NCBI GenBank assembly: GCA_963842845.1
Contig: CAWJHZ010000007.1
Coordinates: 8,342 to 72,341, forward strand
Length of the DNA: 64,000 bases
Source: an uncultured Chloroflexia bacterium
GTDB taxonomy: Bacteria > Chloroflexota > Dehalococcoidia > DSTF01 > JALHUB01
Direction: 5' to 3'
The position numbers and the translations under genes are program-made. Below, piece after piece: positions 12,296 through 45,361 of the stretch (the stretch's first letter is position 1; the number at the start of each line of letters is the position of its first letter). The notes beneath the pieces are model-generated. The model had not been told where the DNA came from. It saw only the letters and a list, made by a program, of their open reading frames with translations, and searched no databases.

Positions 12296-12403
12296 ATTAC
12301 TGCCCCCAAGCGCGCGTGGCCTGCACTCCAAGGCGTGGTGGGGACGCAAAACATGTGTGGTTGGTGTCGGCGATTCGGACTTCGACGAGCGTTGGACCGG
12401 GCG

Positions 12404-12434
12404 TTGACGGCGCTGCCTATTCTTTGCGTATAAT
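12404..12434 (+). promoter_or_regulatory. putative promoter of MmeI-like gene 1: TTGACG ... TATAAT with the -10 box only 7 bp from the ATG (leaderless or near-leaderless mRNA)
   Basis: TATAAT at 12429-12434, ATG at 12442. TTGACG about 19 bp upstream. The same TATAAT-7bp-ATG arrangement occurs upstream of the paralog at 33515. Confidence 0.35.
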
Positions 12435-12441
12435 CCGTCCG

Positions 12442-20655: not shown

Positions 20656-21354
20656 TTAACGCAGCCCTTTGGCGAAGCGCCGCAAGCGGGTAGACCCCGC
20701 CTTCATCAGAACCGAGCCGTGTCCGAAGCACACGATGTCGCACTCCAGAGCGGCCAGCTTGCGGATGGATTCCCTGGCCTGGGCCTTGTCCTGGGTGAAC
20801 ATGCCGGGCGGAGGGCGCAAGCCAAAGACGTTCACGACGGCGTCCCCCACGTAGAGCACACCCCTGGAAGGCATGTGCAGGGCGATCTGCCCAGGGGTAT
20901 GGCCAGGGGCATGTACGACTCGTAGGCCGGCAACCCCAAGCTCGTCACCATCCTGGAGTTCCCGGTCCACCCGTGACGGTTTCGGCGGTCGCGCCAGGCG
21001 GACTAGGAGAGGACCGAGAAGGCCACTCAAGAGCCGTGGCATCTTCGGCGACGGCATGGACTCCTCACCCCGCACAACCGGGGCATCCAGTGCGTGCACA
21101 CACACTTGAGCGCCCGTAGCCTCGGCGAGTTCGGCCAGGCTGCCGGTGTGATCCCCGTGATAGTGAGTCACGACGATTTCTTTGAGGTCCTCGGGCTTGT
21201 GACCGATAGCAGCGATGGTCTGGAGCACCTTCTTTGTGGCACCGGCCATACCCGTGTCGACGAGAGTCAGATGGTCTTCTCCCTCGACGAGGTAGACCCC
21301 GCACCCCTTTATTCCCTCTACCTTGTACACGCCCTCGACAATCTTCATGAGCAT
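20656..21354 (-). CDS. MBL-fold metallo-hydrolase
   Basis: HYHGDHTG (HxHxDH) motif plus downstream His/Asp ligands (VHAPGHTPGQ, CFGHG). 232 aa. Confidence 0.75.
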   Translation of the reverse strand: MLMKIVEGVYKVEGIKGCGVYLVEGEDHLTLVDTGMAGATKKVLQTIAAIGHKPEDLKEIVVTHYHGDHTGSLAELAEATGAQVCVHALDAPVVRGEESMPSPKMPRLLSGLLGPLLVRLARPPKPSRVDRELQDGDELGVAGLRVVHAPGHTPGQIALHMPSRGVLYVGDAVVNVFGLRPPPGMFTQDKAQARESIRKLAALECDIVCFGHGSVLMKAGSTRLRRFAKGLR

Positions 21355-21490
21355 CTCCCTCCTCGAGGTTGTCGTCGCCGCTGGCGGCTGGATTATACGA
21401 CAACGTTCTTCGCCTTCGCAGCATCGCCTTGACTTTCGCGCACACTAATGCATCATGGTCATGATTCCACGTTTGCGAAGGAGAACGACC

Positions 21491-21715
21491 ATGACAGCGA
21501 CCATCATCCCCATCGGCGAGGAGGCAGCAGGCTGGGAACGCGCTCTCTACGCATTTCTTGCCGAAAAGGAGAGGCGGAGCGGCTCAAGACGCATAGTCGA
21601 AGGCTACTCGCGCACTCTCCAGCACTTCTTCGGGGCCGTTGGCAAGCCGCCGGACAGAATCACAAGCCAGGAGGTCTTCACCTGGGCTTACGGCAGAGGA
21701 CTCTCGGGCAACTGA
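21491..21715 (+). pseudogene. N-terminal fragment (about 75 aa) of a tyrosine integrase, near-identical to the N-terminus of the intact integrase at 37926
   Basis: MTATIIPIGEEAAGWERALYAFLAEKERRSGSRR(I/T)VEGYSRTLQHFFGA... matches 37926..38150 at both protein and nucleotide level, including about 60 bp of upstream sequence. It terminates after SGN, with no catalytic domain. Confidence 0.7.
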
Positions 21716-22513: not shown

Positions 22514-23134
22514 ATGGACTCACTCGCCGGAATCGTGCGCCTCGAATCAGGACAGGTCGAAGACGCCGGAAAGATGCTCGGCCGCGCCTTCTTCGACAAC
22601 CCGATGGCGCTCTTCCTCCTGCCCGACGCCGATACCCGCAGCCGCCCGCTGACCTGGATGTTCGACCGAACTGCCCGCTACGGCCTGCTCTTCGGCGAGG
22701 TCTACACCACTGTCGATGCCGTCGACGGTGCCGCGATCTGGCTCGTGCCGGACGGTCCTCCCATGACCCGCGAGAACATCGCGGCCGCCGGAATGATGGA
22801 GATGCCCCAGCAGATGGGCGCGGAGCCGTTTCAGCGGTTGATGCTCATGAAGGGCCACTTCGATGAGCTGCGTCAGCGCGACGCTCCAGAGCGACACTGG
22901 TACCTGTGGACGCTCGGCGTGGACCCGCCGCGACAAGGCCAGGGCGTCGGCGGCGCGCTCATGCAGCCGGTATTTGCGCTGGCCGACCGCGAGGGCCTGC
23001 CGTGCTACCTGGAGGCGGACAAAGCGAAGAACGTCCCCTTCTACCAGCGACACGGCTTCGAGGTGGTGGAGGAGAGCGATCTGCCCGGCGGCGGCATGCA
23101 CTACTGGACAATGAAGCGCCCACCACAACGCTAA
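22514..23134 (+). CDS. GNAT family N-acetyltransferase
   Basis: 206 aa with the acetyl-CoA binding motif RQGQGVGGALM and a typical GNAT fold arrangement. Confidence 0.7.
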   Translation: MDSLAGIVRLESGQVEDAGKMLGRAFFDNPMALFLLPDADTRSRPLTWMFDRTARYGLLFGEVYTTVDAVDGAAIWLVPDGPPMTRENIAAAGMMEMPQQMGAEPFQRLMLMKGHFDELRQRDAPERHWYLWTLGVDPPRQGQGVGGALMQPVFALADREGLPCYLEADKAKNVPFYQRHGFEVVEESDLPGGGMHYWTMKRPPQR

Positions 23135-23173: not shown

Positions 23174-24025
23174 CTATGTTACTCGTACAGGTAGCATCTG
23201 GTGTGACAGAGCTATACTTCCCGTCCACGGCAGCACCGTCTCCGGCGCCGGTGGCCGGTAACCCAGTGAGCTGTGGGGACGCACCGCATTGTAGTGCCGT
23301 CGCCAGCGCTCCACAAGCACCTGCGCCTCAAGAAGCGTGTCGAAGATCTCCGGGTTCAACAGCTCGTCCCTGAGCTTGCCATTGAACGACTCGACGTAGC
23401 CGTTCTCCCAGGGACTCCCGGGCTCTATGTACAGGGTCTTTACTCCTACCCTGGTCAGCCACTCCCGTACTACCTTCGCCGTGAACTCCGTGCCGTTGTC
23501 GGAGCGCAGGTGGCAGGGAGCGCCCTTCTCCACAAAGAGCTGAGCGAGCACCCCCAGAACGTCATCGCTGGTGATCCTCCTCGCCACGTATATGGCTAGG
23601 CACTCCCTGCTGAACTCGTCGATAATGACCAAGAGCCTGAAGGTGCGCCCGTCCCTCGTCCGCGCCGCCACGAAGTCGTAGCTCCAGACGTGTCCCTTGA
23701 AGGCGGGTCGCAGCCTCACGCAGGAGCCGTCGGTGAGCCAGAGACGCCCCCTCTTGGGCTGTCTCCTTGGCACCTTCAGACCCTCAAGCCGCCACAGCCT
23801 CTCCACCCGCTTGTGGTTGACTCGCCAGCCCTCACTGTTCAACATCGCCGTCACCCTACGATATCCGTATCTCCCGTACTCCGCCGCCAGCTCTACCATC
23901 CGCCGCACCAGAAGGGGCTCGTCAGATGGCGGCGCTCGTCCTCTCCTCTGGGTCGAACGTATCTGATTCAACACCAAGCAGGCCCGGCGCTCCGATACCG
24001 CCTCCCGGCCGAGCGCGTCCCTCAC
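23174..24025 (-). CDS. IS3-family transposase OrfB (DDE / rve integrase core)
   Basis: 283 aa. rve-type core ...[43 protein letters not shown]...[10 protein letters not shown]...[25 protein letters not shown] (the D, D, E catalytic context). Confidence 0.8.
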
Positions 24026-30691: not shown

Positions 30692-33515
30692 CTACTGCGC
30701 CGGTTCCCGCTCAAGGTTGAGGCGCAGCAAGCGGGTGACGATCTCAGAATCCGACAGCGCGTCAGACGGCTCCTGCCACCCGTAAGCGGCGAACACCGCC
30801 TCGTCCAGCTTGCGATGCGCGTTTACCAGCCACATGGGGCGCTGGTTGTAGAGCTTCGTAAGCGTGCGGCGTTCTGACTTCTTCACGCCCGGCTTTTCCT
30901 CCGGCGCCTTCAGCCAGTTCTGGCGGGGCTCTTCCAACTCCCGCGCCGCCTCTGCGATTGCGCGCTGCTGCTCTGGCGATGGTCTTGGGAACGAGAACGT
31001 CTCGAAACAGGTTGTCGGGGTATAACGGAAACCGCTCTCCACTTCTCGCAACTGGGTGCCGGTGGCGCGCGCCCACACCTCATGAGCGCGGGAGTGCACC
31101 ACGCCGAAGAAGTAGTCATCATCGCGAGCGAAGACTATGGTGGCCTGGTTGCAGAGGACCTCGGGAGCCACCCAGACGAAAAGACGGTGCTTCGAGTGGC
31201 AGGGCGTGGCTATGAATCTCCACATGCCCTGCAACGCCCTTCTCATGTTTACCCTCGGCTCCCCGTAGATCCACCACCGGTCGGCGTATGCCTTACGTCT
31301 GTTTCTCTCGCGGATTGGCTTCACAACAGAGCGCAGGTGCTCGAAAGGCATTTCGTACTGGGCCGCTTGTTCCTCTCTTGTCCCAGGAGGGAAGTCGATT
31401 GTCCACAAGCCCCGTGGGCGCTGGACCAGATCGACGGCGCTCATCAAAGGTCTTACGATGTCGCTGTTTGGGCGCCCGTTAGGATTCCTAGACCTCAACA
31501 TGCGCCTGGCAAGTTCCGCCGAGATGTCAAACCCCGCCTTCGGTGACGGCCCTTGGAAGCAAATCCTCAGGTTCTCTCTAAGAGGTCGAGCCATCGTCAG
31601 AATCGACACCCGCCGTCAAGTTGGCGTTGATAACTGCAACTTGGTGCCCGTCGAGCGTCCGCTCTAGCTCTGAACCCTTGTCGAAGCCGAGCATCGAGAC
31701 GTGGACCGCCGCCCCGTCCAGAATCCAAGGCCTGTCCGAATAGGCCAAGAACATCTCGCCCGTCTCTTTTATCCGCTCAAGAACGCGCCTATTTGCGCCG
31801 CCCCGAATGCCCTGTGTTGCCAAGAGTCCTGCTCTGGTTGATCGTTCGTCGGCAATCATCTCACGTGCTTGTTCAAACCAATAACAGCAGAGGTCGCTGA
31901 AATGGGGAAGCCGGTCACCATACAGCGAGAACAACGCTTCGACGTATTCGCCGCCAAGATGTTTGCGCAACAAGCTTCCCCCCAAGAACGGAGGATTTCC
32001 GACGATTACGTCCGCTTCCGGCCACTCAGGGATACGCGGCTGGCTGGGGTCCGAGAGGTCAACGATTGCGTCCCTCATCTCTATCTGGTCGAGCGGTTGA
32101 AGGATGGGAGTCTCGTCCGTGAACGGGATCACGTTGCGGTGCTTCCATTGCAGGTAGCCTATCCAGATGACTATAGACGCCAGCTCGCGGGCGTACTCGT
32201 TGATCTCGATGCCCATCAGCTGGCGCGGGTGAACGCGCGGGGAGAGTGGAACGTCGTATGACGCCGCGAAGGCGATAACCTCCTTCTCCAGAGCCTTGAG
32301 GAGAGCCAGGGAGACGTAGAGGAAGTTGCCGGAGCCGCAAGCGGGGTCAAGGACACGGATGGTCGCCAGCCGCTCATGAAACGTCTTTAGAGCGCCGGCG
32401 ATGCGGCTGTGCAGCGTCTCCGGCTTGAACCGCCGGGAGGCCGCGTTCTCCGATAGGTCCTCCGCCGCCACCTTGATCTGGTTCCATTCCCGTCTGAGAG
32501 GGGCCATCAGCACCGGCTCCACTATTAGCTCGATGTCGACACGAGACGTATAGTGCGCGCCGACCTGTCGCCGCTTCTCACGGTCAATAACGCGCTCAAA
32601 AAGAGTGCCGAAGATTGACGGCTCGACATCGGCCCAGTTGAGGCTGTCCAGGTCCTCCAGCAGGCGGACATGCTCGCCGTGGATCTCGTCGGGAACGTCG
32701 CTGTCCTCGAACAAGCGGCCGTCGAAGTAAGGGACGGAGTGCATGAGGAACTTGCCGCCCTTCCGCATGACCTCGAAGAGCTCCGACAGGTTCTCGCGGA
32801 ATGCGGCGGGGTCGTCCTTGTTGACGTTGATGACCTCGCTAAAGGTCTCGCGCGGCAACAGGCCCACGTCTGTCGCGAACATGCAGAACATGACCCGCGT
32901 CACGAAGCGAGCGATGCGCATGTCCTCTACCTTCCATTTGCGCAGGTCATCGGTGATGCGGCCGAAGAGCTTGGCGGCCTCCTGTGTGATCTGCTCGGTA
33001 GTCCGGAGAGGCTTCAGGCGCTCGGGCTCCTCGAAGAGCGCCTTCAGGACTTGGAGGGCTGTGAGCTTCGGGGCGTCGGCAGCGGGCCCGCCGTAAGTGG
33101 TGACTTCGACCGGCTCGTCCAGCGCGATGTCGGCGTTGCGGAAGCGGTAGATCCAGGTCTCTGTGTTGGTCCAGTTGGTGTGGACTTCGAATCGTTCTAT
33201 GTCGCAGACAACGAGCAGCGGCGGGTTACCCAGCGCCTCGCGATACGTCTGAACCTGCTTGTAAGCAATCCCGAGGTCTTTGTGTTTGCCCTTGTACTCC
33301 CAGGCGAAATGGTTCTTGAGCCATACGTCCGCGAACCCGTCGCCGTCAGGTTTCTTCGCGCCTTTCTCAAACGCGAAGAAAGCGCCGCTGGGGTCGGCCT
33401 CGTTCGGGGTCTGCTCGTTGAGCAACCGGCACAGGTCAATGAAGTGCTCCTGCGCAGCCGCATTTTCGCTCTGGGTGGAGGCGGCCCACTTCTTGACGAA
33501 TCCAAGGGAGTCCAT
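30692..33515 (-). pseudogene. second MmeI-family Type IIL RM gene (paralog of 12442..15228), interrupted by a +1/-1 frameshift near 31580-31610 in the TRD; possibly inactive or a sequencing artefact
   Basis: Two overlapping ORFs (31578..33569 and 30692..31609) together reproduce the full architecture: nuclease block, VLDPACGSGNFL, GNPPF, TRD, conserved C-terminus. ATG at 33515 is preceded by TATAAT 7 bp upstream. The frame switches at ACGGCGGGTGTCG (GGG run). Both frames align with copy 1 on either side of the switch. Confidence 0.7.
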
Positions 33516-33879
33516 GAATGCGATTATAGCGAAGGATCGTGGAACCGCCAATGTGGGCTTTTGCCGCAAGGAGTTATTTCAGGACCGACACGATCAGGTC
33601 ATCGTGTGCGGTCCCGCGCACAACGGCTCGGGATGTCGTCAGGCGACGCCCGCCTCGACAGACAGCGCATGAACGGTTCGCGAGTCGAGCGCGCTGACCG
33701 CGTCACGCCGCGCACGCCAGTTGGGGGTTCTTGCGCTCGCCCGACTACGATCTCTTCGATGTCGCCCCTCACCCTCGGCTGGGATAATCGCCATGCGAAA
33801 CCAAGCAAACAGTTGGGGAAGGCGTCTGTCGCCTTCCCCAGCTAGTGTCTTTGGTTTAGATGTGGCTTCTACCGGTTGA

Positions 33880-35247
33880 TTACCACCACCACCAGAAGTG
33901 ACGGTCAGGCCCGTAGCACTGCCTGTCGTGCGACCATTGAATCACGAAGCCAGTGCAAACCTTCGGTCGCGACGGCGTGGCCGTAGGCGTCTTGGTCGGT
34001 TTCGGCGTCGCCGTTTGACATTGACATGGCGGCTTTGTTGTCGGCGTGGCCGTGTGTGTCGGGCTCGGCCCTCCAGATGGAGTCGGTGTGGCCGTAGGCG
34101 TCTTGGTCGGTTTCGGCGTCGCCGTTTGACACGGCGGCTTTGTTGTTGGCGTCGCCGTGACCGTGTTTGTAGCCGTCGGCGTCGCAGTATCGGTCGGCGT
34201 GGCCGTGTCCGTGGCCGTCGGCGTCGCAGTATCGGTCGGCGTGGCGGTGTCCGTGGCCGTCGGCGTCGCAGTATCGGTCGGCGTGGCCGTGTCTGTGGCC
34301 GTCGGCGTGGCCGTGTCTGTCGGCGTGGCCGTGTTCGTAGCCGTCGGCGTGGCCGTGTCTGTCGGCGTGGCCGTGTCCGTGGCCGTCGGCGTGGCCGTGT
34401 CTGTCGGCGTGGCCGTGTCCGTGGCCGTCGGCGTCGCAGTATCGGTCGGCGTGGCCGTGTCCGTCGGCGTGGGCGTGGGCGTGTTCGTAGCCGTCGGCGT
34501 GGCCGTGTCCGTCGGCGTCGGCGTGGCAGTATCGGTCGGCGTGGCCGTGTCCGTAGGCGTCGGCGTGGCTGTATCCGTGGCCGTCGGCGTGGCTGTGTTC
34601 GTGGCCGTCGGCGTGGCTGTATCCGTGGCCGTCGGCGTGAACGTACTCGTCGGCGTCGGCGTGAGCGTCTGCACCGCCGACTGAGACCCACTGGAGCCAC
34701 CTTGGTCTCCCACGGGGCAGTTTCCAGAGCCGCTCGAACAGGTGTCCTGCCACGTCAATGTTGCATTGTCGGTCAATGGGTTCGGATCATTGGCCTGAAC
34801 GGTGTAATGGCTTGTCGTGAAGGTGATAGATGCGCCGAACGGGAGCGTACATAGCGTCTGCCCACCGTTGCAGGATGCTCCGCCAGTGAAAGTGATGCTT
34901 GCGCCCGGCAGCAGGTTGCCCGAAGCTACGTCGCCTGAGCCAGCATGTACGACATCCACCACTGATGTGATCGTCAAGGTGTCACTGGCCTGGTCAACCG
35001 CGTTCGAAACGGAGAACGTGCAGCTGTACGGGTCACCCACATTCGTAGGACTGGCGCAGCCCTTGAGGAAGCTGATGCCGTGGAGGGGTCCCGAACCGGT
35101 GTTCGCCTGAGCCCAGGGGGACCAAATGGCCGTCGCGGCGATCATGGCTAAGCCCACCGCCAGGACCAAGGCGGCTCCTCCCCGTCTTCCGATCACCCGG
35201 GCAGCGCGCCTTGTGCTGTGGTCGTCGCTCGTATACCTCATTTCCAC
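33880..35247 (-). CDS. secreted protein, paralog of cassette B domain, with a long ([14 protein letters not shown])n linker; lacks the sorting tail and ends ...HFWWWW
   Basis: The N-terminal 200 aa are about 85% identical to 25418..26000 ([10 protein letters not shown]...[16 protein letters not shown]). Then about 180 aa of perfect PT-type repeats. Two KPPCQ segments at the C-terminus. Confidence 0.55.
34150..34690. repeat. tandem DNA repeat (about 42-bp unit, roughly 12 copies) encoding the [14 protein letters not shown] linker
   Basis: Periodic GCCGTCGGCGTGGCCGTGTCCGTGGCCGTCGGCGTCGCAGTATCGGTCGGCGTG... read directly. It produces mirror-image artefactual ORFs on both strands (VAVGVAVS..., [10 protein letters not shown]...). 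Confidence 0.7.
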
Positions 35248-35691: not shown

Positions 35692-37671
35692 TCAACCAGT
35701 CGGCGCCCCGGGCCCGTAGATCACGACGTCATAGAATGCGCCGTAGGTGAGACCTAGCTTGCCACCGCTTGGGCCATCCGGGTCGACAATGCTGTAGGAG
35801 TCGCCTGATTTGCCTGAAAGTACGATCCAATGCGGTATGCCTAGCTTGCCCTTCACTTCAACGATCGGCGGTCTCCCCTGAGACAGCGCGTTGTCGATGG
35901 CCTGTTCCCTTGCCGCCAGATCATATTGGCTTGTCCGCAGGATCGTCGGCTCGCCGACATATCCACCAGTTGAGTTGGCGGCGACCTCCCAAGAGATTTT
36001 GCAGCCTCCGTAGCCACCGTGGGCCGTGAGCCATCTGTTGAGATTGTCCGGGCTGACCGGTCCGTATCCCTGAGTCAGCTGAGGCGTTCCGTAGTAGGCG
36101 AGCACATCTGCAACGGATGTCAGCGCGCACCCCGCGACTGCAACAGTAGGGCACCCGGACTTGCCAGCGAGATGATCATTGCCCCATCCCAGATCCCTTT
36201 GCTTGAAATCGGGTACCCCTGTGTACTTGATGGTGGCATAGTCGTACCCAGTGCCCAGGCCAAAGGAGTCACCTGTCACGTAGACATTGCCCGCGCCGTC
36301 CACGGCTATGGCCCGGGGTTCGTCAATTCCCTTGCCGGGGCCGTTGTAGCGTTGTGCCCACTGCTCGCTCCCTTTTGGCCCGTATTTGATAGTCGCGAAC
36401 TCGTCCTCGCCGCTAGACACAAACGAGGAGCCGGTCACGTATGCGTTGCCTAGTGCATCCACAGCGATGGCCGAGGCCACGTCATCGCCGTTGGCCGGGC
36501 CGTCATAGCGGGCCACCCACTGCCTGTCGCCGTCCGGCCCGTACTTGATGGTGGCGTAGTCGTCGTGACCACCAGAACCTCCAGAGCCACCTGTGACGTA
36601 GACATTGCCCGAACCGTCCACGGCAATGTCGTTGCCTGAATTCCATGCGTGACGTGCATCCGGACCATGGTAGTAGCGCTCCCACACCATATGCCCGTCT
36701 GCCGCTCCGAACTTGACGGTTACACAGTTGACGGCGGCACCTTCGACCCAGCCTGTCACGTACGCGTTCCCCAGAGCGTCGACAGCAAGAGCCTGGACGC
36801 CCCCCTGGAAACCCAGGGGTGGATAGTAACCCACCCACAGCAGGCTCCCGTCCGGCCCGTACTTCACGATGGCGAAGTCGTAGCCATAGTTCGCGGAGGG
36901 ATCAATATCATAGCCCTGACCCGCCACGTACACGTTGCCAGCGCTGTCTATTGCGATGTCCCGGGCGTGGTAATCGTAGCCGTCCGGGAGCCTGAAGCGA
37001 CGTGCCCACAACTCGCTCCCGTCCGGTCCGTATTTGACGGTGGCGTAGTCGTACAAGTTGTCGGGGCCCTGAGATGACCCCGTCACATATGCGTTCCCTT
37101 GACGGTCCACGACCAGGCCAACAGGCCGATCGGACCCAGCACCTCCACTGCTGCACGGGCCGGAGCCGTTACCAGGGCCGTTGCATCGTCGCGTCCACAG
37201 CTCCCTCCCGTCCGGTCCGTACTTTATGGTGAGGTAGTCATTCCCCGTATCGACGCCCTCTGACAAGCCTGTGACGTACACGTTTCCCTGGTTGTCGACT
37301 GCCACAGCGACGGCCTCGTCAGAGCCGTTGGCCGAGCCGTTGTATGACTTTGTCCACAGAACCGTCCCGTCTGATGCGTACTTCGCTGTGGCGTAGTCCG
37401 TTCCGCTGACAGAGCCTGTGGAGTAGCCTGTGACGTATACGTTGCCTGAGTTGTCCACAGCAACCGCCGCGCTACGATCGTCGCCACTGGCAGAACCGTC
37501 GTAGCGGGCCACCCAATCTCGCGTAACCACGCCGCTGCCGTTCGCGACGAGGCTCTCGCCAGGGACTGGACCGGCACGGGCACGCGAAGGGCCCAATAGC
37601 AGCCCGCCGACAACCGCCAGCACAGAGAAGAGGTATTGTAGGGTGGTTCGCCCAATTGGAGCGTGCATCAT
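35692..37671 (-). CDS. secreted SBBP-type beta-propeller repeat protein with a C-terminal putative papain-like/C39-like cysteine peptidase domain
   Basis: Signal peptide. At least eight repeats YDG...DD.A.AIAVD..GNVYVTG.S.G. The C-terminal region has CPTVAVAGCALTSVADVLAYYG ... GIPHWIVLSG (candidate Cys and His). Domain call is tentative. Confidence 0.45.
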   Translation of the reverse strand: MMHAPIGRTTLQYLFSVLAVVGGLLLGPSRARAGPVPGESLVANGSGVVTRDWVARYDGSASGDDRSAAVAVDNSGNVYVTGYSTGSVSGTDYATAKYASDGTVLWTKSYNGSANGSDEAVAVAVDNQGNVYVTGLSEGVDTGNDYLTIKYGPDGRELWTRRCNGPGNGSGPCSSGGAGSDRPVGLVVDRQGNAYVTGSSQGPDNLYDYATVKYGPDGSELWARRFRLPDGYDYHARDIAIDSAGNVYVAGQGYDIDPSANYGYDFAIVKYGPDGSLLWVGYYPPLGFQGGVQALAVDALGNAYVTGWVEGAAVNCVTVKFGAADGHMVWERYYHGPDARHAWNSGNDIAVDGSGNVYVTGGSGGSGGHDDYATIKYGPDGDRQWVARYDGPANGDDVASAIAVDALGNAYVTGSSFVSSGEDEFATIKYGPKGSEQWAQRYNGPGKGIDEPRAIAVDGAGNVYVTGDSFGLGTGYDYATIKYTGVPDFKQRDLGWGNDHLAGKSGCPTVAVAGCALTSVADVLAYYGTPQLTQGYGPVSPDNLNRWLTAHGGYGGCKISWEVAANSTGGYVGEPTILRTSQYDLAAREQAIDNALSQGRPPIVEVKGKLGIPHWIVLSGKSGDSYSIVDPDGPSGGKLGLTYGAFYDVVIYGPGAPTG

Positions 37672-37925
37672 GCTGCTCCCGCGGCTTTTGAGAGTGTCCC
37701 GATCCTAGATGATGTCCTTTCGATCCCCTTATCGGAAGAAAGGGCCGAATCTAGAGCGGGTGTAACCCTGTAGACCTGCTCAGCGATGCCGGTAGGTGGA
37801 GAGTGGAGCGATCATTGACTAGCAGAGTCTCTCGCTGCGAGCATCTGCTCTTGAGGACTGGCTTGACTTCCGCGCACACTAATGCAATATGGTCGTGATT
37901 CTACGTTTGCGAAGGAGAAACGACC

Positions 37926-38858
37926 ATGACAGCAACCATCATCCCCATCGGCGAGGAAGCCGCTGGCTGGGAACGTGCTCTGTACGCATTCCTTGCCGAA
38001 AAGGAGCGACGCAGCGGCTCAAGACGAACAGTCGAGGGTTATTCCAGAACCCTCCAGCACTTCTTCGGGGCCATCGGCAAGCCGCCCGACCGGATCACGA
38101 GTCAGGAGGTCTTCGCCTGGGCCTACGGCAAGGGGTTGTCTGGCAAGGAGCCCTCGGCAATCACGATCGGGGCCAGGCTTGCCTGCCTCAGTTCCTTCTA
38201 CCGCTTCCTGATCCGCATGGAGATCGTCTCCGCCAACCCCTGCGACCAGATCGAGCGACCCAAGCCCTCGCCCAGCCCACCGCGGGGGATCAGCGCCGAG
38301 GGGATCAGAAAGCTGCTCACCGTCATCCCCGAGACGCCGGCCGGTCTGCGGGACCGAGCCATCATCCTCACACTTGTCTTGACGGGTCGGCGCCGCGCAG
38401 AGGTCTTCAACCTGAAGGTCGGCGACCTCATTCGAACCGATGGCCTCTTCTACACCTACCGCGGCAAGGGAGGCAAGCAGGGGAAGCGGGAACTGCCTTT
38501 ACCCGCATTCGAGGCGATTAAGGTGGCGCTGGCCGCATTCGCCAAGGACCTCGACACGATGAAGCCCGGGGAGTCACTCTGGCCATCGCCCGGTCGGAGC
38601 GGCACTGGCATCACCAGCGGCACCTTCTATGGCAACCTGCAGCGCTACCTGCGCAAGGCGGGGCTGCCGCCCGCCGGCGTCCACATCTTCCGCCACAGTG
38701 CCGCCAAGCTACGGCGAGACGTCGGAGAGTCGGTGGAAGATGTCAGCCTTTTCCTCGACCACAGCTCGCTGGCGGTCACGACGGTCTACCTGCGGAGGCT
38801 CGAGGGGCAAGAGGACAGGAATTGGCAGAAGGTGGCGATGGCACTGGGTATCTGTTGA
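37926..38858 (+). CDS. tyrosine-type site-specific recombinase / phage integrase family
   Basis: 310 aa. Catalytic region ...GLRDRAIILTLVLTGRRRAEV...HIFRHSAAKLRR (HxxR)...LAVTTVYLRRL (Tyr). Its N-terminus and 5' flank are duplicated at 21426-21715. Confidence 0.8.
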   Translation: MTATIIPIGEEAAGWERALYAFLAEKERRSGSRRTVEGYSRTLQHFFGAIGKPPDRITSQEVFAWAYGKGLSGKEPSAITIGARLACLSSFYRFLIRMEIVSANPCDQIERPKPSPSPPRGISAEGIRKLLTVIPETPAGLRDRAIILTLVLTGRRRAEVFNLKVGDLIRTDGLFYTYRGKGGKQGKRELPLPAFEAIKVALAAFAKDLDTMKPGESLWPSPGRSGTGITSGTFYGNLQRYLRKAGLPPAGVHIFRHSAAKLRRDVGESVEDVSLFLDHSSLAVTTVYLRRLEGQEDRNWQKVAMALGIC

Positions 38859-38965
38859 ATACAGCGACTGAGCAGTCACAGAGACGAATCGCACAGGGCC
38901 GGCCGCGAGGCCGGTCTTCTCGTTCTAAGCGCGCGGTCGATAATGCCAGTAGGAAGGAGCTAGAG

Positions 38966-39322
38966 ATGACGAACGCCGCCAGGGATGAAAAGGACATCGA
39001 GCCGCTCTCGGACGCTGGACAAGTCCGCAACGACATGGTTTCTTGGGTCGCGGACTTGGCGCAACAGCATAAAGAGGACGCGGCCAATCCGGACTCAAGA
39101 CTCTCTCTCCTACACCTAGACGAGGGGCATCTGCGTCATGCCTCTCCCTCCCACGTCAACGAGTGGCATCTGATCCAGGCCTCCCGATTGGGGAAATTGG
39201 CGGACTTTCTCGAAGCCCTGCCAGACGACGACCCGCTCATCCAGTCAGAGACACGGCAGGCCATGCGAAAGTGGCACGACCAACGGATCGAGGAGTGGTT
39301 CGACTATATGGCCAAGTTTTGA
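38966..39322 (+). CDS. hypothetical protein
   Basis: RBS AGGAAGGAG, 8 bp, ATG. 118 aa, acidic. No recognisable motif. Confidence 0.35.
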   Translation: MTNAARDEKDIEPLSDAGQVRNDMVSWVADLAQQHKEDAANPDSRLSLLHLDEGHLRHASPSHVNEWHLIQASRLGKLADFLEALPDDDPLIQSETRQAMRKWHDQRIEEWFDYMAKF

Positions 39323-40100
39323 GCGGGGGAGAGCGGCGACGACGCTCAACCAGTACCGTGCCTATCATCGAGGCCAAAACGTCGATTATCTCACTGAGAG
39401 GCGAGAAAGGTGTCAGGTGTGCGTAGACTCGGAGTGCTGGCAATAGGTACAGCTATTCTTGGCTGGGTGGTTAACAACCTGCTGAGAACGGATGAGGACA
39501 AGGCTGTTTCATCAGTGATGGGGCCGCCACGCCACGAAGATGCGAATTCTAACGGGGCGACTTTCCCGCGAGAAGCGGAACCAGCCTCTCTAGCAGCTGA
39601 CCTCCCTCCTGGACAAGCAGACCCTCTCGACGAACCTGCGAATGTCATTCCCCTGGAAGCCATGCGCGCGCATCCCCCCCGGAATCGTCCGCCTTCGCCG
39701 CCGAACGAAAACGGAAATGCGAGAATGAGACGCGCTCGAAATGCCGTCGATAAACGCTTCCGGCAATTGCCGGAAAAGGGTGATCGACGCAAGAGAGGCG
39801 CAGCTTAGCCATCGCGGGTCTGGCTCCACTGGCAGCCCGCAGCTAAGACGCGACCGTGTGAAACTGTCCACGTGCGAACACCTACGGTAACCCCTGCAAT
39901 GAGACCGCTCACTAATAGGCGGCCTCCCTTGAAGACGTTGGCGGACGCTTGGAGTGTGACGCTGGCGTCCTCATTGCGAGCGAGTATTCAGATAAGCTTG
40001 GTTTCTATTCGAGATGCGCTACCAGTTTCTATCTGCGTCGTGGTAGAATCGAGCGCAGGATGAGGCGGGGCATCCGAATCTATCCTCGGAGGTCAACGAT

Positions 40101-41312
40101 ATGCCTCGCCACTACTCGCCTCGCGACTTTCTTCGGCTAGCTCCGAATGCGCTGCTCGCCCGCTACTTTCACGAACGCAACCTTCTGACTGATCTCGATA
40201 TCGATTCTCTTGCGGAAACCGATGTGCAGCCCATCTTTGAGGCCTTGACGGCACTCGCGCCTGAGCTGTCCGCTCCGGTCAACAGCGACTTTGAGCTCGT
40301 CACAGCTCTGGCAGACGAGCAAGGCATTCAGGCTATTCTCGACGAAGCCCAGTATCACGAATTCGACTTTACCGACGCCTTCGATTCCATGCCGGGCTTC
40401 TTCGACAAGGCGCTGTGGACGTTCCTCGAGCACCCAAGAATTGCGGCGGTTGCGCGCCTGCTGTCTGAAGTCGAGCGCTATCCGACCGCCTCCTGGGTCC
40501 GCCGACGCGACGAGGCATTCGGGGCTGAGCCACGTGACGATGACGGCGCGCGAGCCGAACTTTCAGGAGCGCTCGGTTCATACTTCCATATGAAGGAAGG
40601 ACGAGGAAGCGAGTGTTTCGTCGACGTGTACCGCCGCGGGACGAAACTATACTACTTCGCCTTCCCTGAGGACTATGCCCAGACAAGCTTGGAATACCTG
40701 GCGGGCAAACTCGAACGCCGAGCGCATCGGCCCGTCTTCCAGGTGGTCTTCGTCTGCGATCCGGCAACGGGAACGCTCGATACCTACTTCCGTGGCCAGA
40801 AGAAGACACGCCTAGAGATCGAGACGAAATTCTCCCGCGTGATCCTCGGCAGGGAACTCGACCCCTGGAAGGACGACCGCGTCTACGATCTGAACGCCTT
40901 TAAGGGACGCGGTGTGACGTTCGTGTACGACCCCACCTCGGGAATCCACGACATCCGCGTGAAGCAGCTCCGCCTCACACTGATCGGGGGCGGCTCGCGG
41001 CGCATTACTCTAGAGGCTGATCCGAGCGCAGCCAAAGAGGCAGTCCACGACATGCTGGCCACGCTCTTCGCGTCTGATAGCGGTCACGCTCATGGTGGAT
41101 GGTCGCCTGCGTTCGCCAACGTTACCCGGGTCGGGCTACAAGTGTATTTCTCGTCCGGCAGCCGCAGGGGCCGGAACACCAAGACCTTCTACCTGACTTA
41201 TCCCAACGGTTGCACGCTCGGACACCACGGGCGGGACGCCATTCTCCGACAGATGCTGATCGACTCTAAGATAGAGACAATCAGCCACGCGCCCGCACGC
41301 GAGAAAGCATGA
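40101..41312 (+). CDS. hypothetical protein (403 aa), first gene of a coupled two-gene module inside the integrated element
   Basis: Long ORF with good coding periodicity. Its stop overlaps the start of the next ORF (ATGA). I cannot assign it to any family. Confidence 0.5.
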   Translation: MPRHYSPRDFLRLAPNALLARYFHERNLLTDLDIDSLAETDVQPIFEALTALAPELSAPVNSDFELVTALADEQGIQAILDEAQYHEFDFTDAFDSMPGFFDKALWTFLEHPRIAAVARLLSEVERYPTASWVRRRDEAFGAEPRDDDGARAELSGALGSYFHMKEGRGSECFVDVYRRGTKLYYFAFPEDYAQTSLEYLAGKLERRAHRPVFQVVFVCDPATGTLDTYFRGQKKTRLEIETKFSRVILGRELDPWKDDRVYDLNAFKGRGVTFVYDPTSGIHDIRVKQLRLTLIGGGSRRITLEADPSAAKEAVHDMLATLFASDSGHAHGGWSPAFANVTRVGLQVYFSSGSRRGRNTKTFYLTYPNGCTLGHHGRDAILRQMLIDSKIETISHAPAREKA

Positions 41313-41947
41313 TCGCCGAACTGGCCGACCAACTCCTTCAACGCGCTCGGTCCAACGTCCCGAACGACCGAATTGTGACTGCCGACGAGGTGACGCGGTG
41401 GCCCGAAGGAATGCTCGACGCGCTTCTGCGCGACGGTATTGTGAAGGAAATCCAGCCCGCCACATCCGTCGAGTGCGATGCCTGCTATGAAGGGCATGCC
41501 GAGGTCGTGGAGTTCATCGAAGAACCGCCGGGCTCACCATTGCGAGCGTATATCGCGTGTCCCGAGTTCGGTCGAGTGAAGGTGGACCCGCAGAGGATGC
41601 GGCGCTGGGAACTCGTAGCAAACGAACCAGAGACCGCCGTGTTCTTGAGTTCTGACGCGGTCATCGACGACGGTCCGAAGAGCATCTCTCGCTTCCGCCA
41701 TTCACCTGACTTCCGGTCGGTGAACCTCGATGACCACGAGTATTCTTTGACAGGCCGACAAGCCCAAGTCGTCGAGTTCCTCTACCAGATGTACCAGAAC
41801 AAAACACCAGAGGTGAGCCAGAGCCTTGTCCTTGAGCACCTCGAGTCCAAATACACCGAGCTCCGGTACGTCTTCAAGAACAACCCCGCCTGGGGGACAC
41901 TGGTCGTTTCCGGAAAAACGAAGGGGACTGTCCGCCTCAACCTCTAG
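41309..41947 (+). CDS. hypothetical protein (212 aa) with CxxC...H...C putative zinc-binding segment
   Basis: Translationally coupled to the upstream ORF. SVECDACYEGHAEVVEF...YIACPEF suggests a small zinc finger. No family recognised. Confidence 0.45.
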   Translation: MIAELADQLLQRARSNVPNDRIVTADEVTRWPEGMLDALLRDGIVKEIQPATSVECDACYEGHAEVVEFIEEPPGSPLRAYIACPEFGRVKVDPQRMRRWELVANEPETAVFLSSDAVIDDGPKSISRFRHSPDFRSVNLDDHEYSLTGRQAQVVEFLYQMYQNKTPEVSQSLVLEHLESKYTELRYVFKNNPAWGTLVVSGKTKGTVRLNL

Positions 41948-42155
41948 TTCCCGCGAAACTCCCGTCTACGGTGCGGGGTAGTTTGAAACCAACCTCCTAG
42001 ACTGGTCTCGTGGACAAACACGAGAGGCCGCTGCGACTTGCTATTGTCCCGCAGGTAGAGCGTGTATACACACCTGACCGCGAGGCGATGCGGGAAGCCC
42101 TGCGAGTGGTGCTGGGACTCCCCAAGCGACCGTCCTTCGGTCAGGAGGTACCGGC

Positions 42156-43751
42156 GTGACAGAAGAGCAAACCCCTGTGGCGGTCTACATGCGGGTCTCA
42201 AGCGACGACCAGCGGGACCGCGAGACGATCAAGACGCAGCGTGAGGCTATCGACCGCTTCCTCGCGCAGAACCCTCAGTACGTCGTCTACCGCTACTACG
42301 AGGACGACGGCGTCTCCGGCACTGTCCCCATGGCCGTGCGACCCGGCGGCGCTCAAATGGTCGCCGGCGCCAAGGCCGGCAAGTTCTCCAAGATCATCGT
42401 CCTGCGCGCCAGCCGACTTGGCCGAGAGGAGATCGACCTGCTCACAACCTACAACCTGTTCGTGGACGCGCTGGACATCGAGATCATCGGCGTCGCTGAG
42501 CCGCTTGGCGACCGGACGATGTTCGGCTTCCAGTCCATCATGGCCGGCTATGCCCGTCGTCAGTTCCTCGCTGACTCGGCTCGGGGGATGGACAGGGCGG
42601 TGCGCGAAGGTCGCTTCACCGGCGGGATCGTGCCGACTGGCTACAGAGTTGAGGGCCGTAGGCAGACGGCCAGGCTTATCCCCGATGACACGATCGTCTG
42701 GGGCGATTGGACCGCGGTAGACCTGATCCGCCGCATCTATCACTGGCTGGGCGTTGAAGGGAAGAGCTGCCGCTGGATCTCCCGCGAACTAAACTCGCTC
42801 GGCGTCCCCACCGCGTACCAGCGAGACGGTCGCGGCGTGCGCGGCAAGCGTACGCAGGAACTGTGGCGGCCGGGACGGATCCGGCAGTTGGTCGTCAACC
42901 CGGTGTACATGGGAACGCTCCTCTATGGGCGCCGCAGAAGTCGTTACTCGAAGAGGACCGAACTAATCCCCGGCGCCGTGCCGGCGCTGGTGTCCAGCGA
43001 GCTCTGGGAGGCTGCGCAGCGAACCCTGGCCGCCAACCGTATCTGCGCCAAGAACACGCAAAGAGTCTACCTTCTCCGCTCGGTGATGGTCTGCGGAGTC
43101 TGTGGCCTGCACTACGGCGGAACTCCCGGAAGGGACGGTATCTCTTGGTACCGCTGCAACGGCCAGCTCGTCGAGCGGGGCAGGATCGATGGCAAGTGCC
43201 CGGGCAAGTCCATTCGCTCGGACTGGCTAGAACCTATCGTCTGGGATGACATCGAGCGATGGCTGCGCAACCCCGGCGATCTCCTCGACGAGATCAACGT
43301 CGACGAGGAGCAGGAGAACCAGCGGGCGATTATCGAAGCGGAGCAAATCACTCTTCAGAAAGCACTAGGGGGATTAGCTGAGCGACGCAAGAGGGCAATC
43401 GACCTCCACGTCCGAGGACGCATCCAGGAAGCCGAACTGGATGAGATTCTGGAAAACCTACACAAGGAGAGAAGCGCCCTGGAAGAGCGTCTCGCCCGCA
43501 TCGCTCTCCCCGTCGAGGAGGAAATCGAAACGCTGGACCCGGACCTGCTCGCCAAGCTACGGCGACGCCTGAATGCGGGCCTCGACGATGCCACCCGTCA
43601 CGAGGTCGTCAGATTGCTCGTCCGCCAGATTCTGGTAGACACGGTTTTCGTCGAGAATGGACGGAAGATGCTCAGAATCCGGATTGAGTACCGATTCCCT
43701 GCTGTACCACCGTCTAGCAGGGGCACGGGTTCATCGCCGCGACGAGCATGA
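42156..43751 (+). CDS. large serine recombinase (resolvase/invertase N-domain, recombinase domain, zinc ribbon, coiled coil)
   Basis: [12 protein letters not shown] catalytic Ser motif. ...RLGRE... Zinc ribbon [10 protein letters not shown]...YRCNG...C. C-terminal coiled-coil region. 531 aa. Confidence 0.8.
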
Positions 43752-44778
43752 AGTTGCTGGGGAACGTGGTCGTGCCGTGGGCGCGGCTGATGGTCACCAT
43801 GCGGTCCTCCATCGGCTGGCGCAGCACCTCGAGGACGGTCTGTCCGAACTCCGGCAGCTCGTCGAGAAACAGCACGCCGCGATGGCTCAGCGTTATCTCG
43901 CCCGGGCGCACCTGCCGTCCGCCGCCGACAAGCCCCGCGTGTGACACGGTGTGGTGCGGCGAGCGGAAGGGCCGTCGTCGGATCAGCGGCGTGTCAGCCG
44001 GCAGCAGCCCGCCGACGCTGTAGATCTTCGTCACCTCCAGCGCCTCCTCCGGGCTCATCGGCGGCAGTATCGACGGCATCGCGCGGGCAAGCAGCGTCTT
44101 GCCGCTTCCCGGCGGGCCCGTCATCAGCAGGTTGTGGCCGCCCGCCGCGGCGACCTCCAGCGCGCGCTTGACGTGCTCCTGTCCCTTGATGTCGGCGAAG
44201 TCCGCGCCGTCCCAGACCGGCTCCTCGACCGCGACGTCGAGCGGCCCGGCGACGAACGGCGCGATAGGCTCGATGCCGGCCAGATGCGCCGCAAGCTGCG
44301 CCAGCGACTTCACAGGCAGCACCGTCACGCCTTCGATGAGCGCGGCTTCCGCGGCGTCGGCCTCCGGCACGTAGACCGTCTCGAGACCGCGTTCTTTCGC
44401 CAGCGCCACCATCGACAGGATGCCGTGGGCGTGGCGCACCTGCCCGTCCAGCGCCAGCTCGCCGAGAAAGAGCGCGTTCGAGAGGTCGGCGACGACCTGC
44501 TGCGACGCGAGCATGATGCCGACGGCAATCGGCAAATCGTAGGCCGGGCCTTCCTTCCGAACGTCGGCGGGCGCCAGGTTGACGGTGATGCGCCGCGACG
44601 GGAACTGGAGGCCGGAGTTGCGCACCGCCGAGCGCACGCGCTCCTTCGCCTCCTGGACGGCGGTGTCGGGCAGCCCGACGATATAGAAAGCGGACAGTCC
44701 GGAGGCAATGTCGACCTCGACTTCGACGACGGCGCCTTCGAGGCCGACAACGGCGCAGGATAGTACTTTGGCGAGCAT
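43714..44778 (-). pseudogene. comM: yifB/comM-family Mg-chelatase-like AAA+ ATPase, 3'-truncated: the reading frame ends right after the NPCPC motif where the serine-recombinase element begins
   Basis: N-terminal Lon-like domain plus AAA+ core ([21 protein letters not shown], Walker [10 protein letters not shown]). Stops at ...AAMNPCPC*, whereas family members continue for about 150 more residues. The 3' end overlaps the recombinase gene end by about 38 bp. Confidence 0.65.
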
Positions 44779-44896: not shown

Positions 44897-45361
44897 GTGA
44901 GCAAACTCCATCGATTCCCGATTGAGGACGCCTGCTATCACGTCGTCACTAGAACGCGAGGAGGCCTCCCCCGCTTTAGCGACTCGACAGAAGCCCTTGT
45001 GGTGGTCGCCGCACTCCAATTCGTGCGCGGGAGAAGGGCCTACCTCCTCGGCTACGCCGTGCTGCCAGATCATTTCCATGCTCTTCTCGTGCCAATAGGC
45101 GACATGACGATCTCTGCCCTGATGCATGGCATCAAGGGGTACTCGTCTCGCGTCCTCAACGCTCGGCAAGGTCGACGCGGCCCGATCTGGCAACGGAGCT
45201 TCTACGACCGTGTGATAAGAAGCGAGCCTCAGTTGATTAGCACTTTGGAGTACATCCACAACAACCCGGTCATAGCGGGTTTAGCGGAGGTGCCGGAGGA
45301 GTATCGATTCTCTTCGGCGCCCCCAGAGGCAGGGACGGACTTGGAGCTGTTTCTCGGTTGA
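44897..45361 (+). CDS. REP-associated tyrosine transposase (RAYT) / IS200-like Y1 transposase
   Basis: GTG start. HUH motif LPDHFHALLVP and a downstream Tyr region (...RSFYDRVIR). 154 aa. Flanked by inverted hairpins. Confidence 0.7.
   Translation: MSKLHRFPIEDACYHVVTRTRGGLPRFSDSTEALVVVAALQFVRGRRAYLLGYAVLPDHFHALLVPIGDMTISALMHGIKGYSSRVLNARQGRRGPIWQRSFYDRVIRSEPQLISTLEYIHNNPVIAGLAEVPEEYRFSSAPPEAGTDLELFLG

Follow-up and report, generated by a model that had tools for sequence, protein, structure and literature searches.

Proteins with the RdgC fold are non-specific DNA binders, and RexA, RdgC, Iml3 and Chl4 have this one fold in common and bind DNA (PMC11077077). RexA of phage lambda binds DNA non-specifically and modulates the lysis-lysogeny switch (PMC11077077). 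RdgC of E. coli (PDB 2OWL) is recombination-associated and nucleoid-associated and is encoded by a solitary chromosomal gene; its family is characterised by a ring-shaped dimer that binds DNA and inhibits RecA. YejK weakly resembles RdgC and CENP-N in its N-terminal domain, and plasmids can carry yejK (PMC11229321). Here we describe two overlapping genes, A and B, in a stretch of 64,000 nucleotides (nt), the window, from an uncultured Chloroflexia bacterium (GenBank assembly GCA_963842845.1, contig CAWJHZ010000007.1, positions 8,342 to 72,341 of the forward strand). Unlike RdgC, A is paired with B on mobile elements, is about 100 residues longer and has an extra acidic helical N-terminal domain. 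Lambda RexA/RexB, in which RexA has the RdgC fold, is likewise a two-gene module on a mobile element, and YejK/NdpA-type nucleoid proteins (for example that of pCAR1), which are DNA clamps, also occur on mobile elements (PMC11229321). Judged from sequence comparison, the A-B pair behaves as a conserved unit across many phyla, and the body of A is predicted to have an RdgC-like fold. Our tentative reading, to which we give a probability of roughly 0.4, is that A and B form a DNA-binding complex that would act on the element's own DNA or on its genetic switch.

Neither the fold class nor the general notion that mobile elements encode DNA-binding accessory proteins is new. A literature search for RdgC-like proteins in defence systems or islands returned only the RexA and YejK structure papers, and the A-B pair is absent from a 2026 preprint on genomic islands.

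Results

The gene pair and its distribution

Coordinates are positions in the window, in which A is the open reading frame (ORF) at 40101-41312 and B that at 41309-41947; protein lengths are in amino acids (aa).

40101 to 41312, plus strand: gene A, 403 aa; acidic helical N-terminal domain and basic alpha/beta body
41309 to 41947, plus strand: gene B, 212 aa; predicted zinc-binding N-terminal domain, linker and winged helix
41474 to 41560, plus strand: predicted zinc site of B; C56 at 41474-41476, C59 at 41483-41485, H63 at 41495-41497, C84 at 41558-41560
41693 to 41947, plus strand: winged-helix C-terminal domain of B, the part swapped between otherwise close relatives

The first-pass annotation of this DNA had read A and B as two coupled genes of strong coding character with a CxxC..H..C motif and no recognisable family, and in all these respects it was borne out. 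The two genes overlap in ATGA at 41309-41312, formed by the ATG of B (41309-41311) and the TGA of A (41310-41312). A Shine-Dalgarno sequence, GGAGG at 40088-40092, lies 8 nt 5' of the ATG of A, and guanine-cytosine content by codon position is coding-like (0.65/0.45/0.71 in A, 0.64/0.39/0.73 in B). Because both have many homologues, A and B are real genes and not chance ORFs. The motif reads C56-x2-C59-x3-H63-x20-C84 and is conserved in relatives.

Profile scans with Pfam, NCBIfam and PADLOC gave no family match for A or B. In Pfam, nothing appeared at E <= 1 for A, including the RdgC profile PF04381, or for B, including the profiles PF05930 and PF12728 of AlpA/Xis-type excisionases; separate AlpA and HTH_17 genes come after B in most loci. 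The 5,027 models of PADLOC-DB v2 gave only PDC-S15 at E 0.051 for A and none for B, and a proteobacterial A (P0070) and B (from L005) had no PADLOC match. Sequence-profile searches of the PDB found nothing for A and, for B, only a chance match to ribosomal protein L24 (E 0.047). The only family matched by A was phrog_37634, an unannotated phage family in PHROG (E 2e-21; residues 6-325 against profile positions 5-340 of 416). Neither the library scans nor the structure models revealed a catalytic, toxin or membrane domain in A or B.

The pair is nevertheless common. An indexed protein search found more than 217 relatives of A, 2,962 cluster representatives (50% identity) among 1.84 billion matched A at E <= 1e-3, and 378 loci were found among the genomes of 185,579 species. 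These loci belong to Chloroflexota, Pseudomonadota, Acidobacteriota, Nitrospinota, Planctomycetota, Desulfobacterota, Gemmatimonadota and other phyla. Cultured carriers of the pair include Arhodomonas aquaeolei DSM 8974, Nitrosomonas marina Nm71 and Thalassotalea sp. 42_200_T64. A comparison of window A and a proteobacterial A with phage and plasmid collections by tblastn gave no match, and in IMG/VR the pair is rare (10 contigs).

That the pair recurs as a unit in other genomes, a point the annotation had left to be checked, was confirmed. A B-like ORF lies directly 3' of A in about 75 of 83 non-redundant loci, most of the exceptions being contig ends, and the 4-nt overlap is found in 41 of 73. 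Pairwise identities of A correlate with those of the N-terminal domain of B (r = 0.87), a value that none of 500 Mantel permutations reached. Two single polypeptides (P0259, 610 aa, and P0260, 667 aa) contain a full A followed by a full B-type zinc domain and tail; they are natural fusions or else result from frameshift errors at the ATGA junction. In one acidobacterial island (L028, 10001-11674), B is cleanly deleted, A is intact and AlpA follows A directly, the rest being colinear with another island, L049. The A-B family is a widespread and wholly unannotated protein pair with a reproducible architecture and context.

Predicted structures of A and B

The model of A (predicted local distance difference test score, pLDDT, 86) comprises a helical, acidic N-terminal domain (residues 1-125; isoelectric point, pI, 4.3) and a basic alpha/beta body (residues about 130-390; pI 9.4). 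In the model the body has an RdgC/CENP-N/TBP-like fold, and the predicted three-dimensional fold of A is of the RdgC type. A Foldseek search of the A model against viral models (BFVD) gave weak matches, several of them with RdgC-type names; those named 'Recombination-associated protein' and 'Exonuclease' had a probability of 0.98-0.99, but low TM-scores. No toxin fold or family is recognisable in either partner: Pfam, NCBIfam and PADLOC gave no toxin match, and A has an RdgC/TBP-like fold.

The model of B (pLDDT 89) describes a soluble protein with a predicted zinc-binding, acidic N-terminal domain (residues 1-105; pI 4.7), a disordered linker (109-124) and a basic winged helix (129-212; pI 9.05). 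All structural matches of B are winged-helix DNA binders. Of 62 aligned relatives, 59 retain C56, C59 and C84, and 60 have C (37) or H (23) at position 63; the three exceptions to the zinc motif share only the C-terminal domain with B. The annotation had taken both proteins as candidates for something undescribed. Neither belongs to an annotated family; no recognisable toxin or enzyme domain emerged, and both have folds of DNA-binding type.

The C-terminal domain of B differs between relatives that are otherwise close. DNA homology of the window to L008, L089 and L095 ends at 41610 and restarts at about 42026 (blastn). Since 41610 is the end of the N-terminal domain of B, it is the C-terminal domain itself that has been exchanged. 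Some protein matches (65-75% identity) are likewise confined to the first 47-55% of B. Conversely, three proteins (P0149-P0151) have only the winged-helix domain (HSPDFRSV...KGTVRLNL) in common with B, and it stands behind unrelated N-terminal regions; it is therefore a mobile domain in its own right. In other lineages B is about 200 to 490 aa long and has different C-terminal regions, none with a Pfam domain. The family of the N-terminal domain counts at least 692 proteins.

A small polytopic membrane partner like RexB was not found: B is a soluble two-domain protein in its model, and its structural matches are winged-helix DNA binders only. Membership of A-B in the Rex system was rejected because a RexB-like partner is lacking.

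The layout of the pair recalls a toxin-antitoxin module. In MqsRA, the partner gene comes first and is followed by a gene for a protein with an N-terminal zinc domain and a C-terminal DNA-binding domain; the latter, in MqsA, is an XRE-type helix-turn-helix, and MqsR is an RNase-type toxin. Gene order in A-B and the layout of B are alike, which we take as a lead only, but A is no RNase-type toxin, B has a winged helix instead, and A-B has no sequence match to MqsRA. On this analogy, A might be a DNA-clamping growth inhibitor and B an antitoxin that neutralises A through its zinc domain and autoregulates the operon through its DNA-binding domain, and the module would stabilise the island. Translational coupling and the tight co-divergence of the two genes would suit such an addiction module, as would the HigB-like/XRE-M78 pair that occupies the place of A-B in one relative of the window (L094, see below) and the vicinity of excision genes, where loss-triggered killing would be useful. 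However, A lacks a known toxin fold, no toxin-antitoxin match appeared in PADLOC or Pfam, the A-B fusion proteins fit a stable complex and not a labile antitoxin, and L028 keeps A after a clean deletion of B. We consider an addiction function improbable.

Genomic position of the pair

The neighbours of 83 loci were clustered, and three layouts recurred. In the first, A-B is followed by AlpA and a primase/helicase (Toprim_3 and DUF3987). In the second, A-B is followed by AlpA, HTH_17 and a tyrosine integrase, usually with a convergent P4-like integrase thereafter. In the third, found in Chloroflexota including the window, the order is tyrosine integrase, sometimes a further gene, A-B and a large serine recombinase, and the element is often inserted in comM. 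Among the loci with at least 4 kilobases (kb) of downstream sequence, 48 of 58 have a co-directional AlpA, Toprim-DUF3987 primase, HTH_17, tyrosine integrase or serine recombinase within 6 kb downstream.

Seven further loci were scanned for downstream genes. A-B is followed by a Prim-Pol-helicase in L011, a ParA-like ATPase in L012, family-A polymerases in L035, L064 and L025, and a large protein without Pfam match in L023; in L054, B is missing and a gene for an outer-membrane protein comes after A. The most divergent members of the family head a DUF1580-AAA_24(Sak4)-DUF669-helicase module (L107) or a Toprim-DUF927 module (L105). A-B is thus a self-contained module that has been joined to different backbones, every time with its place and orientation unchanged.

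On the other side of the pair, upstream, the first large gene most often serves restriction or defence and as a rule lies on the opposite strand. The counts for 55 loci were ResIII 10, N6_Mtase 7, Eco57I 5, MmeI 3, Mrr 3, N6_N4_Mtase 3, SNF2 3, type ISP 2 and Cas3 2, and an integrase was nearest in 8. In the acidobacterial islands, colinear DNA homology starts 70-95 nt 5' of A and extends over A, B, AlpA, HTH_17 and both integrases, and all sequence upstream of this start is unrelated. The pair marks a boundary between variable defence cargo and a mobility or replication backbone in several unrelated element types. A conserved divergent repressor upstream of A was considered as a general feature and dismissed; a CopG-like gene is common to 6 loci only. 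The annotation had asked for a look at co-occurrence with defence islands: A-B often adjoins restriction-modification and defence genes, but it is not scattered within defence islands and keeps a fixed position and orientation.

The lead position raises another explanation, namely an early host-takeover or anti-defence function in which A-B would block RecA/SOS, RecBCD or restriction on entry or induction, like genes of plasmid leading regions. In every backbone type A-B opens the early, replication-type operon; RecA functions are inhibited by RdgC (cited in PMC11077077); and the N-terminal domains of both proteins are strongly acidic. Neither protein has homology to any known anti-defence protein, however, and the islands themselves carry restriction systems upstream of the pair. 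We regard this function, too, as improbable.

The element around the pair in the window

In the window, A-B lies between an integrase block and a recombinase block.

37859 to 38858, plus strand: tyrosine-integrase module; gene 37926-38858, 310 aa (PF00589, PF02899); left edge of backbone homology at about 37859 (blastn)
38849 to 42025, plus strand: variable slot between the integrase and recombinase blocks, holding two orphan ORFs and the A-B cassette
38822 to 39322 and 39410 to 39808, plus strand: orphan ORFs in the slot, 166 and 132 aa; no family match
40025 to 41610, plus strand: conserved A-B cassette, with a leader of about 75 nt containing GGAGG, A and the N-terminal domain of B (blastn against L002, L008, L089, L092, L095)
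42026 to 43751, plus strand: large serine recombinase module; gene 42156-43751, 531 aa, with a conserved leader; Resolvase, Recombinase and Zn_ribbon_recom domains
43714 to 44778, minus strand: 5' part of comM/yifB, 354 aa, cut inside the Mg_chelatase domain (profile positions 1-161 of 207, no C-terminal domain)

The edges of the A-B cassette are sharp, with homology setting in at 40025-40040 and ending at 41610 in several relatives. No terminator-like site was found on the plus strand between B and the serine recombinase gene, and scanning the surroundings of the cassette for promoters, terminators and repeats gave nothing informative. The sole relative of the orphan ORFs among the fetched loci is L001, a contig with a 100% identical copy. 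The gene comM/yifB is the integration target of the serine-recombinase element: the truncation falls exactly where the abutting serine-recombinase gene begins, and L002, L088-L093 and L108 share this junction. Six-frame motif searches of the window and of the 10-kb flanks of relatives did not find the 3' part of comM, and Pfam scans did not find it among the ORFs at the left edge of the island.

Metagenomic loci whose serine recombinase is closely related to that of the window (best segment 67-88% identical) were compared by blastp and blastn. All of them keep two blocks, that of the integrase (window 37859-38848) and that of the recombinase (about 42026 into comM). Between the blocks, L089, L092 and L095 have A-B, L088 has an unrelated 397-aa gene on the reverse strand, and L097 has a gap of similar size without a match to A or B. 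In the slot of L094 (370-4234), a HigB-like gene is accompanied by genes for an XRE-M78 peptidase, an unknown protein of 377 aa and a 354-aa protein weakly similar to the JetD/DUF2399 Toprim domain. The peptidase matches PADLOC PD-Lambda-2_B (E 3.6e-35), and the content of this slot could be a variant defence set. L094 thus carries a PD-Lambda-2_B-like gene in the slot in which other relatives have A and B, proteins that match no PADLOC model. Because close relatives keep both modules and vary the content between them (A-B, the 397-aa gene or the PD-Lambda-2-like set), the earlier description of the locus as a cargo position between a tyrosine integrase and a serine recombinase is correct for the element family. 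In this family A-B is dispensable and sits in a swappable slot.

In the window, L002, L007, L008, L017 and L108, the gene immediately 3' of A-B, on its strand, encodes a large serine recombinase, an arrangement that would suit a recombination directionality factor for the adjacent recombinase. Most members of the family, however, adjoin AlpA/HTH_17 and tyrosine integrases or replication genes only, and L088, L094 and L097 have the same recombinase without A-B. On these two grounds this very improbable explanation was rejected.

The swappable slot also bears on a Rex-like exclusion or defence function. Here A would sense foreign DNA or intermediates of replication or recombination, a role that has been proposed for RexA, and together with B would block phage or plasmid development, for example by clamping or repression, the pair being island cargo. 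Consistent with this, L094 has the PD-Lambda-2-like set and the JetD-like Toprim protein in the same place, the nearest large upstream gene is often one for restriction or defence in the 55 loci, and the C-terminal domain of B is swapped between close relatives, as is often the case for sensor or specificity domains of defence systems. Moreover, the RdgC fold occurs in lambda RexA, one of the two components of an exclusion system (PMC11077077). Against it, none of the 5,027 PADLOC models was matched; no nuclease, NTPase, NADase or membrane effector was found, and B is soluble in its model where RexB is a membrane protein. The pair was absent from phage and plasmid collections by tblastn and found on only 10 contigs in IMG/VR, and the fixed position and orientation before mobility genes (48 of 58 loci) are unlike those of typical defence cargo. 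We think an exclusion function rather unlikely.

Other features of the island were noted. A partial second copy of the left end of the integrase module (window 21428-21712 against 37859-38142, 86-88% identical), made up of a leader of about 65 nt and the first 72 or so codons, lies 16 kb upstream of the module and adjoins a gene for a metallo-beta-lactamase-fold protein (20656-21354). This copy is probably either a relic of an earlier element or the left-hand limit of a composite island about 22 kb long. Two genes of MmeI-family type IIL restriction-modification enzymes are present, one inside the island (30692-33569, minus strand) and one outside it (12316-15228, plus strand; 970 aa, intact). 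The former is split into ORFs 31578-33569 and 30692-31609 and may therefore be frameshifted. An IS3-type transposase gene in the island (23174-24025, minus strand; rve, rve_3, HTH_21) adjoins a GNAT acetyltransferase gene (22514-23134), and an IS200-like Y1 transposase gene (44897-45361, plus strand; PF01797, E 1e-10) lies just past comM, outside the element. Two island genes on the minus strand, 33880-35247 and 35692-37671, encode likely secreted proteins. One has a long Thr/Pro/Asp-rich repeat of the TPTATDTA type; the other is a 659-aa SBBP beta-propeller with a weak Peptidase_C10 match around residue 510 that stays below threshold (E 3.5e-4; 21.3 bits, cut-off 26).

Discussion

The first-pass annotation proposed that A-B is a defence, addiction or exclusion system. 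Nothing in our data shows this; no effector or toxin domain is recognisable in A or B, and both folds are of DNA-binding type. We do not think that A-B is a toxin-type effector. The fixed position ahead of mobility genes fits a role in element maintenance or regulation at least as well as one in defence.

From the gene pair, its folds, its co-inheritance, its position and the swappable slot, we infer complex formation, DNA binding and a role for A-B along the following lines. A and B would make up one two-protein DNA-binding module that moves as a unit between integrative elements. A may bind DNA in the manner of a clamp; to the RdgC/RexA/CENP-N fold it adds an acidic helical N-terminal domain. 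B would be its partner, with the constant, A-coupled zinc-binding domain probably being the part that binds A, and the exchangeable C-terminal domain, here a winged helix, giving specificity for DNA or a target. Charge is split within the two proteins: the winged helix of B (pI 9.05) is basic, as is the body of A with its RdgC-like fold (pI 9.4). The two genes would be transcribed as the leading genes of an operon for excision, replication or recombination of the element, and their products might act on the DNA transactions of the element once it is switched on. They could bias the on/off switch, as RexA does in lambda, or, in the manner of RdgC, they could shield or organise DNA that is excised or replicating against RecA and recombination of the host.

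Several points weigh against this interpretation. The link between A and RdgC is at the level of fold only, without a detectable sequence relationship: alignment of the A profile by hhalign gave a probability of 0.14% with E. coli RdgC and of less than 1% with lambda RexA, of which A is not a recognisable homologue. All distant loci were sampled through A, and for this reason the finding that the pair always heads an operon says nothing about the share of backbones that lack A-B. The divergence of A follows the downstream backbone only loosely (r = 0.57 for the integrase, 0.45 for AlpA and 0.05 for the primase). In the window's own family, A-B can be replaced by unrelated cargo, including a known defence-type set, and is therefore not essential to that backbone.

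A bolder version, which we hold to be unlikely, is that A-B is a new non-enzymatic DNA-clamp system. In it, the C-terminal domain of B would steer a ring of the RdgC fold onto particular DNA, and the ring would either protect the activated island or stop recombination-dependent replication of an invading phage or plasmid. If this were true, it would be a widespread immunity or maintenance mechanism of genomic islands that works without an effector, in more than 10 phyla.

Several cultured strains carry the pair, which is therefore a well-defined experimental target, and the pair is usable as a practical marker for such islands. Should A-B turn out to serve exclusion, the RdgC/RexA fold would have a second and far more widespread role in immunity. 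If A-B instead controls the switch or the DNA handling of the island, as we favour, it would help to explain how islands that carry defence genes are activated and maintained.

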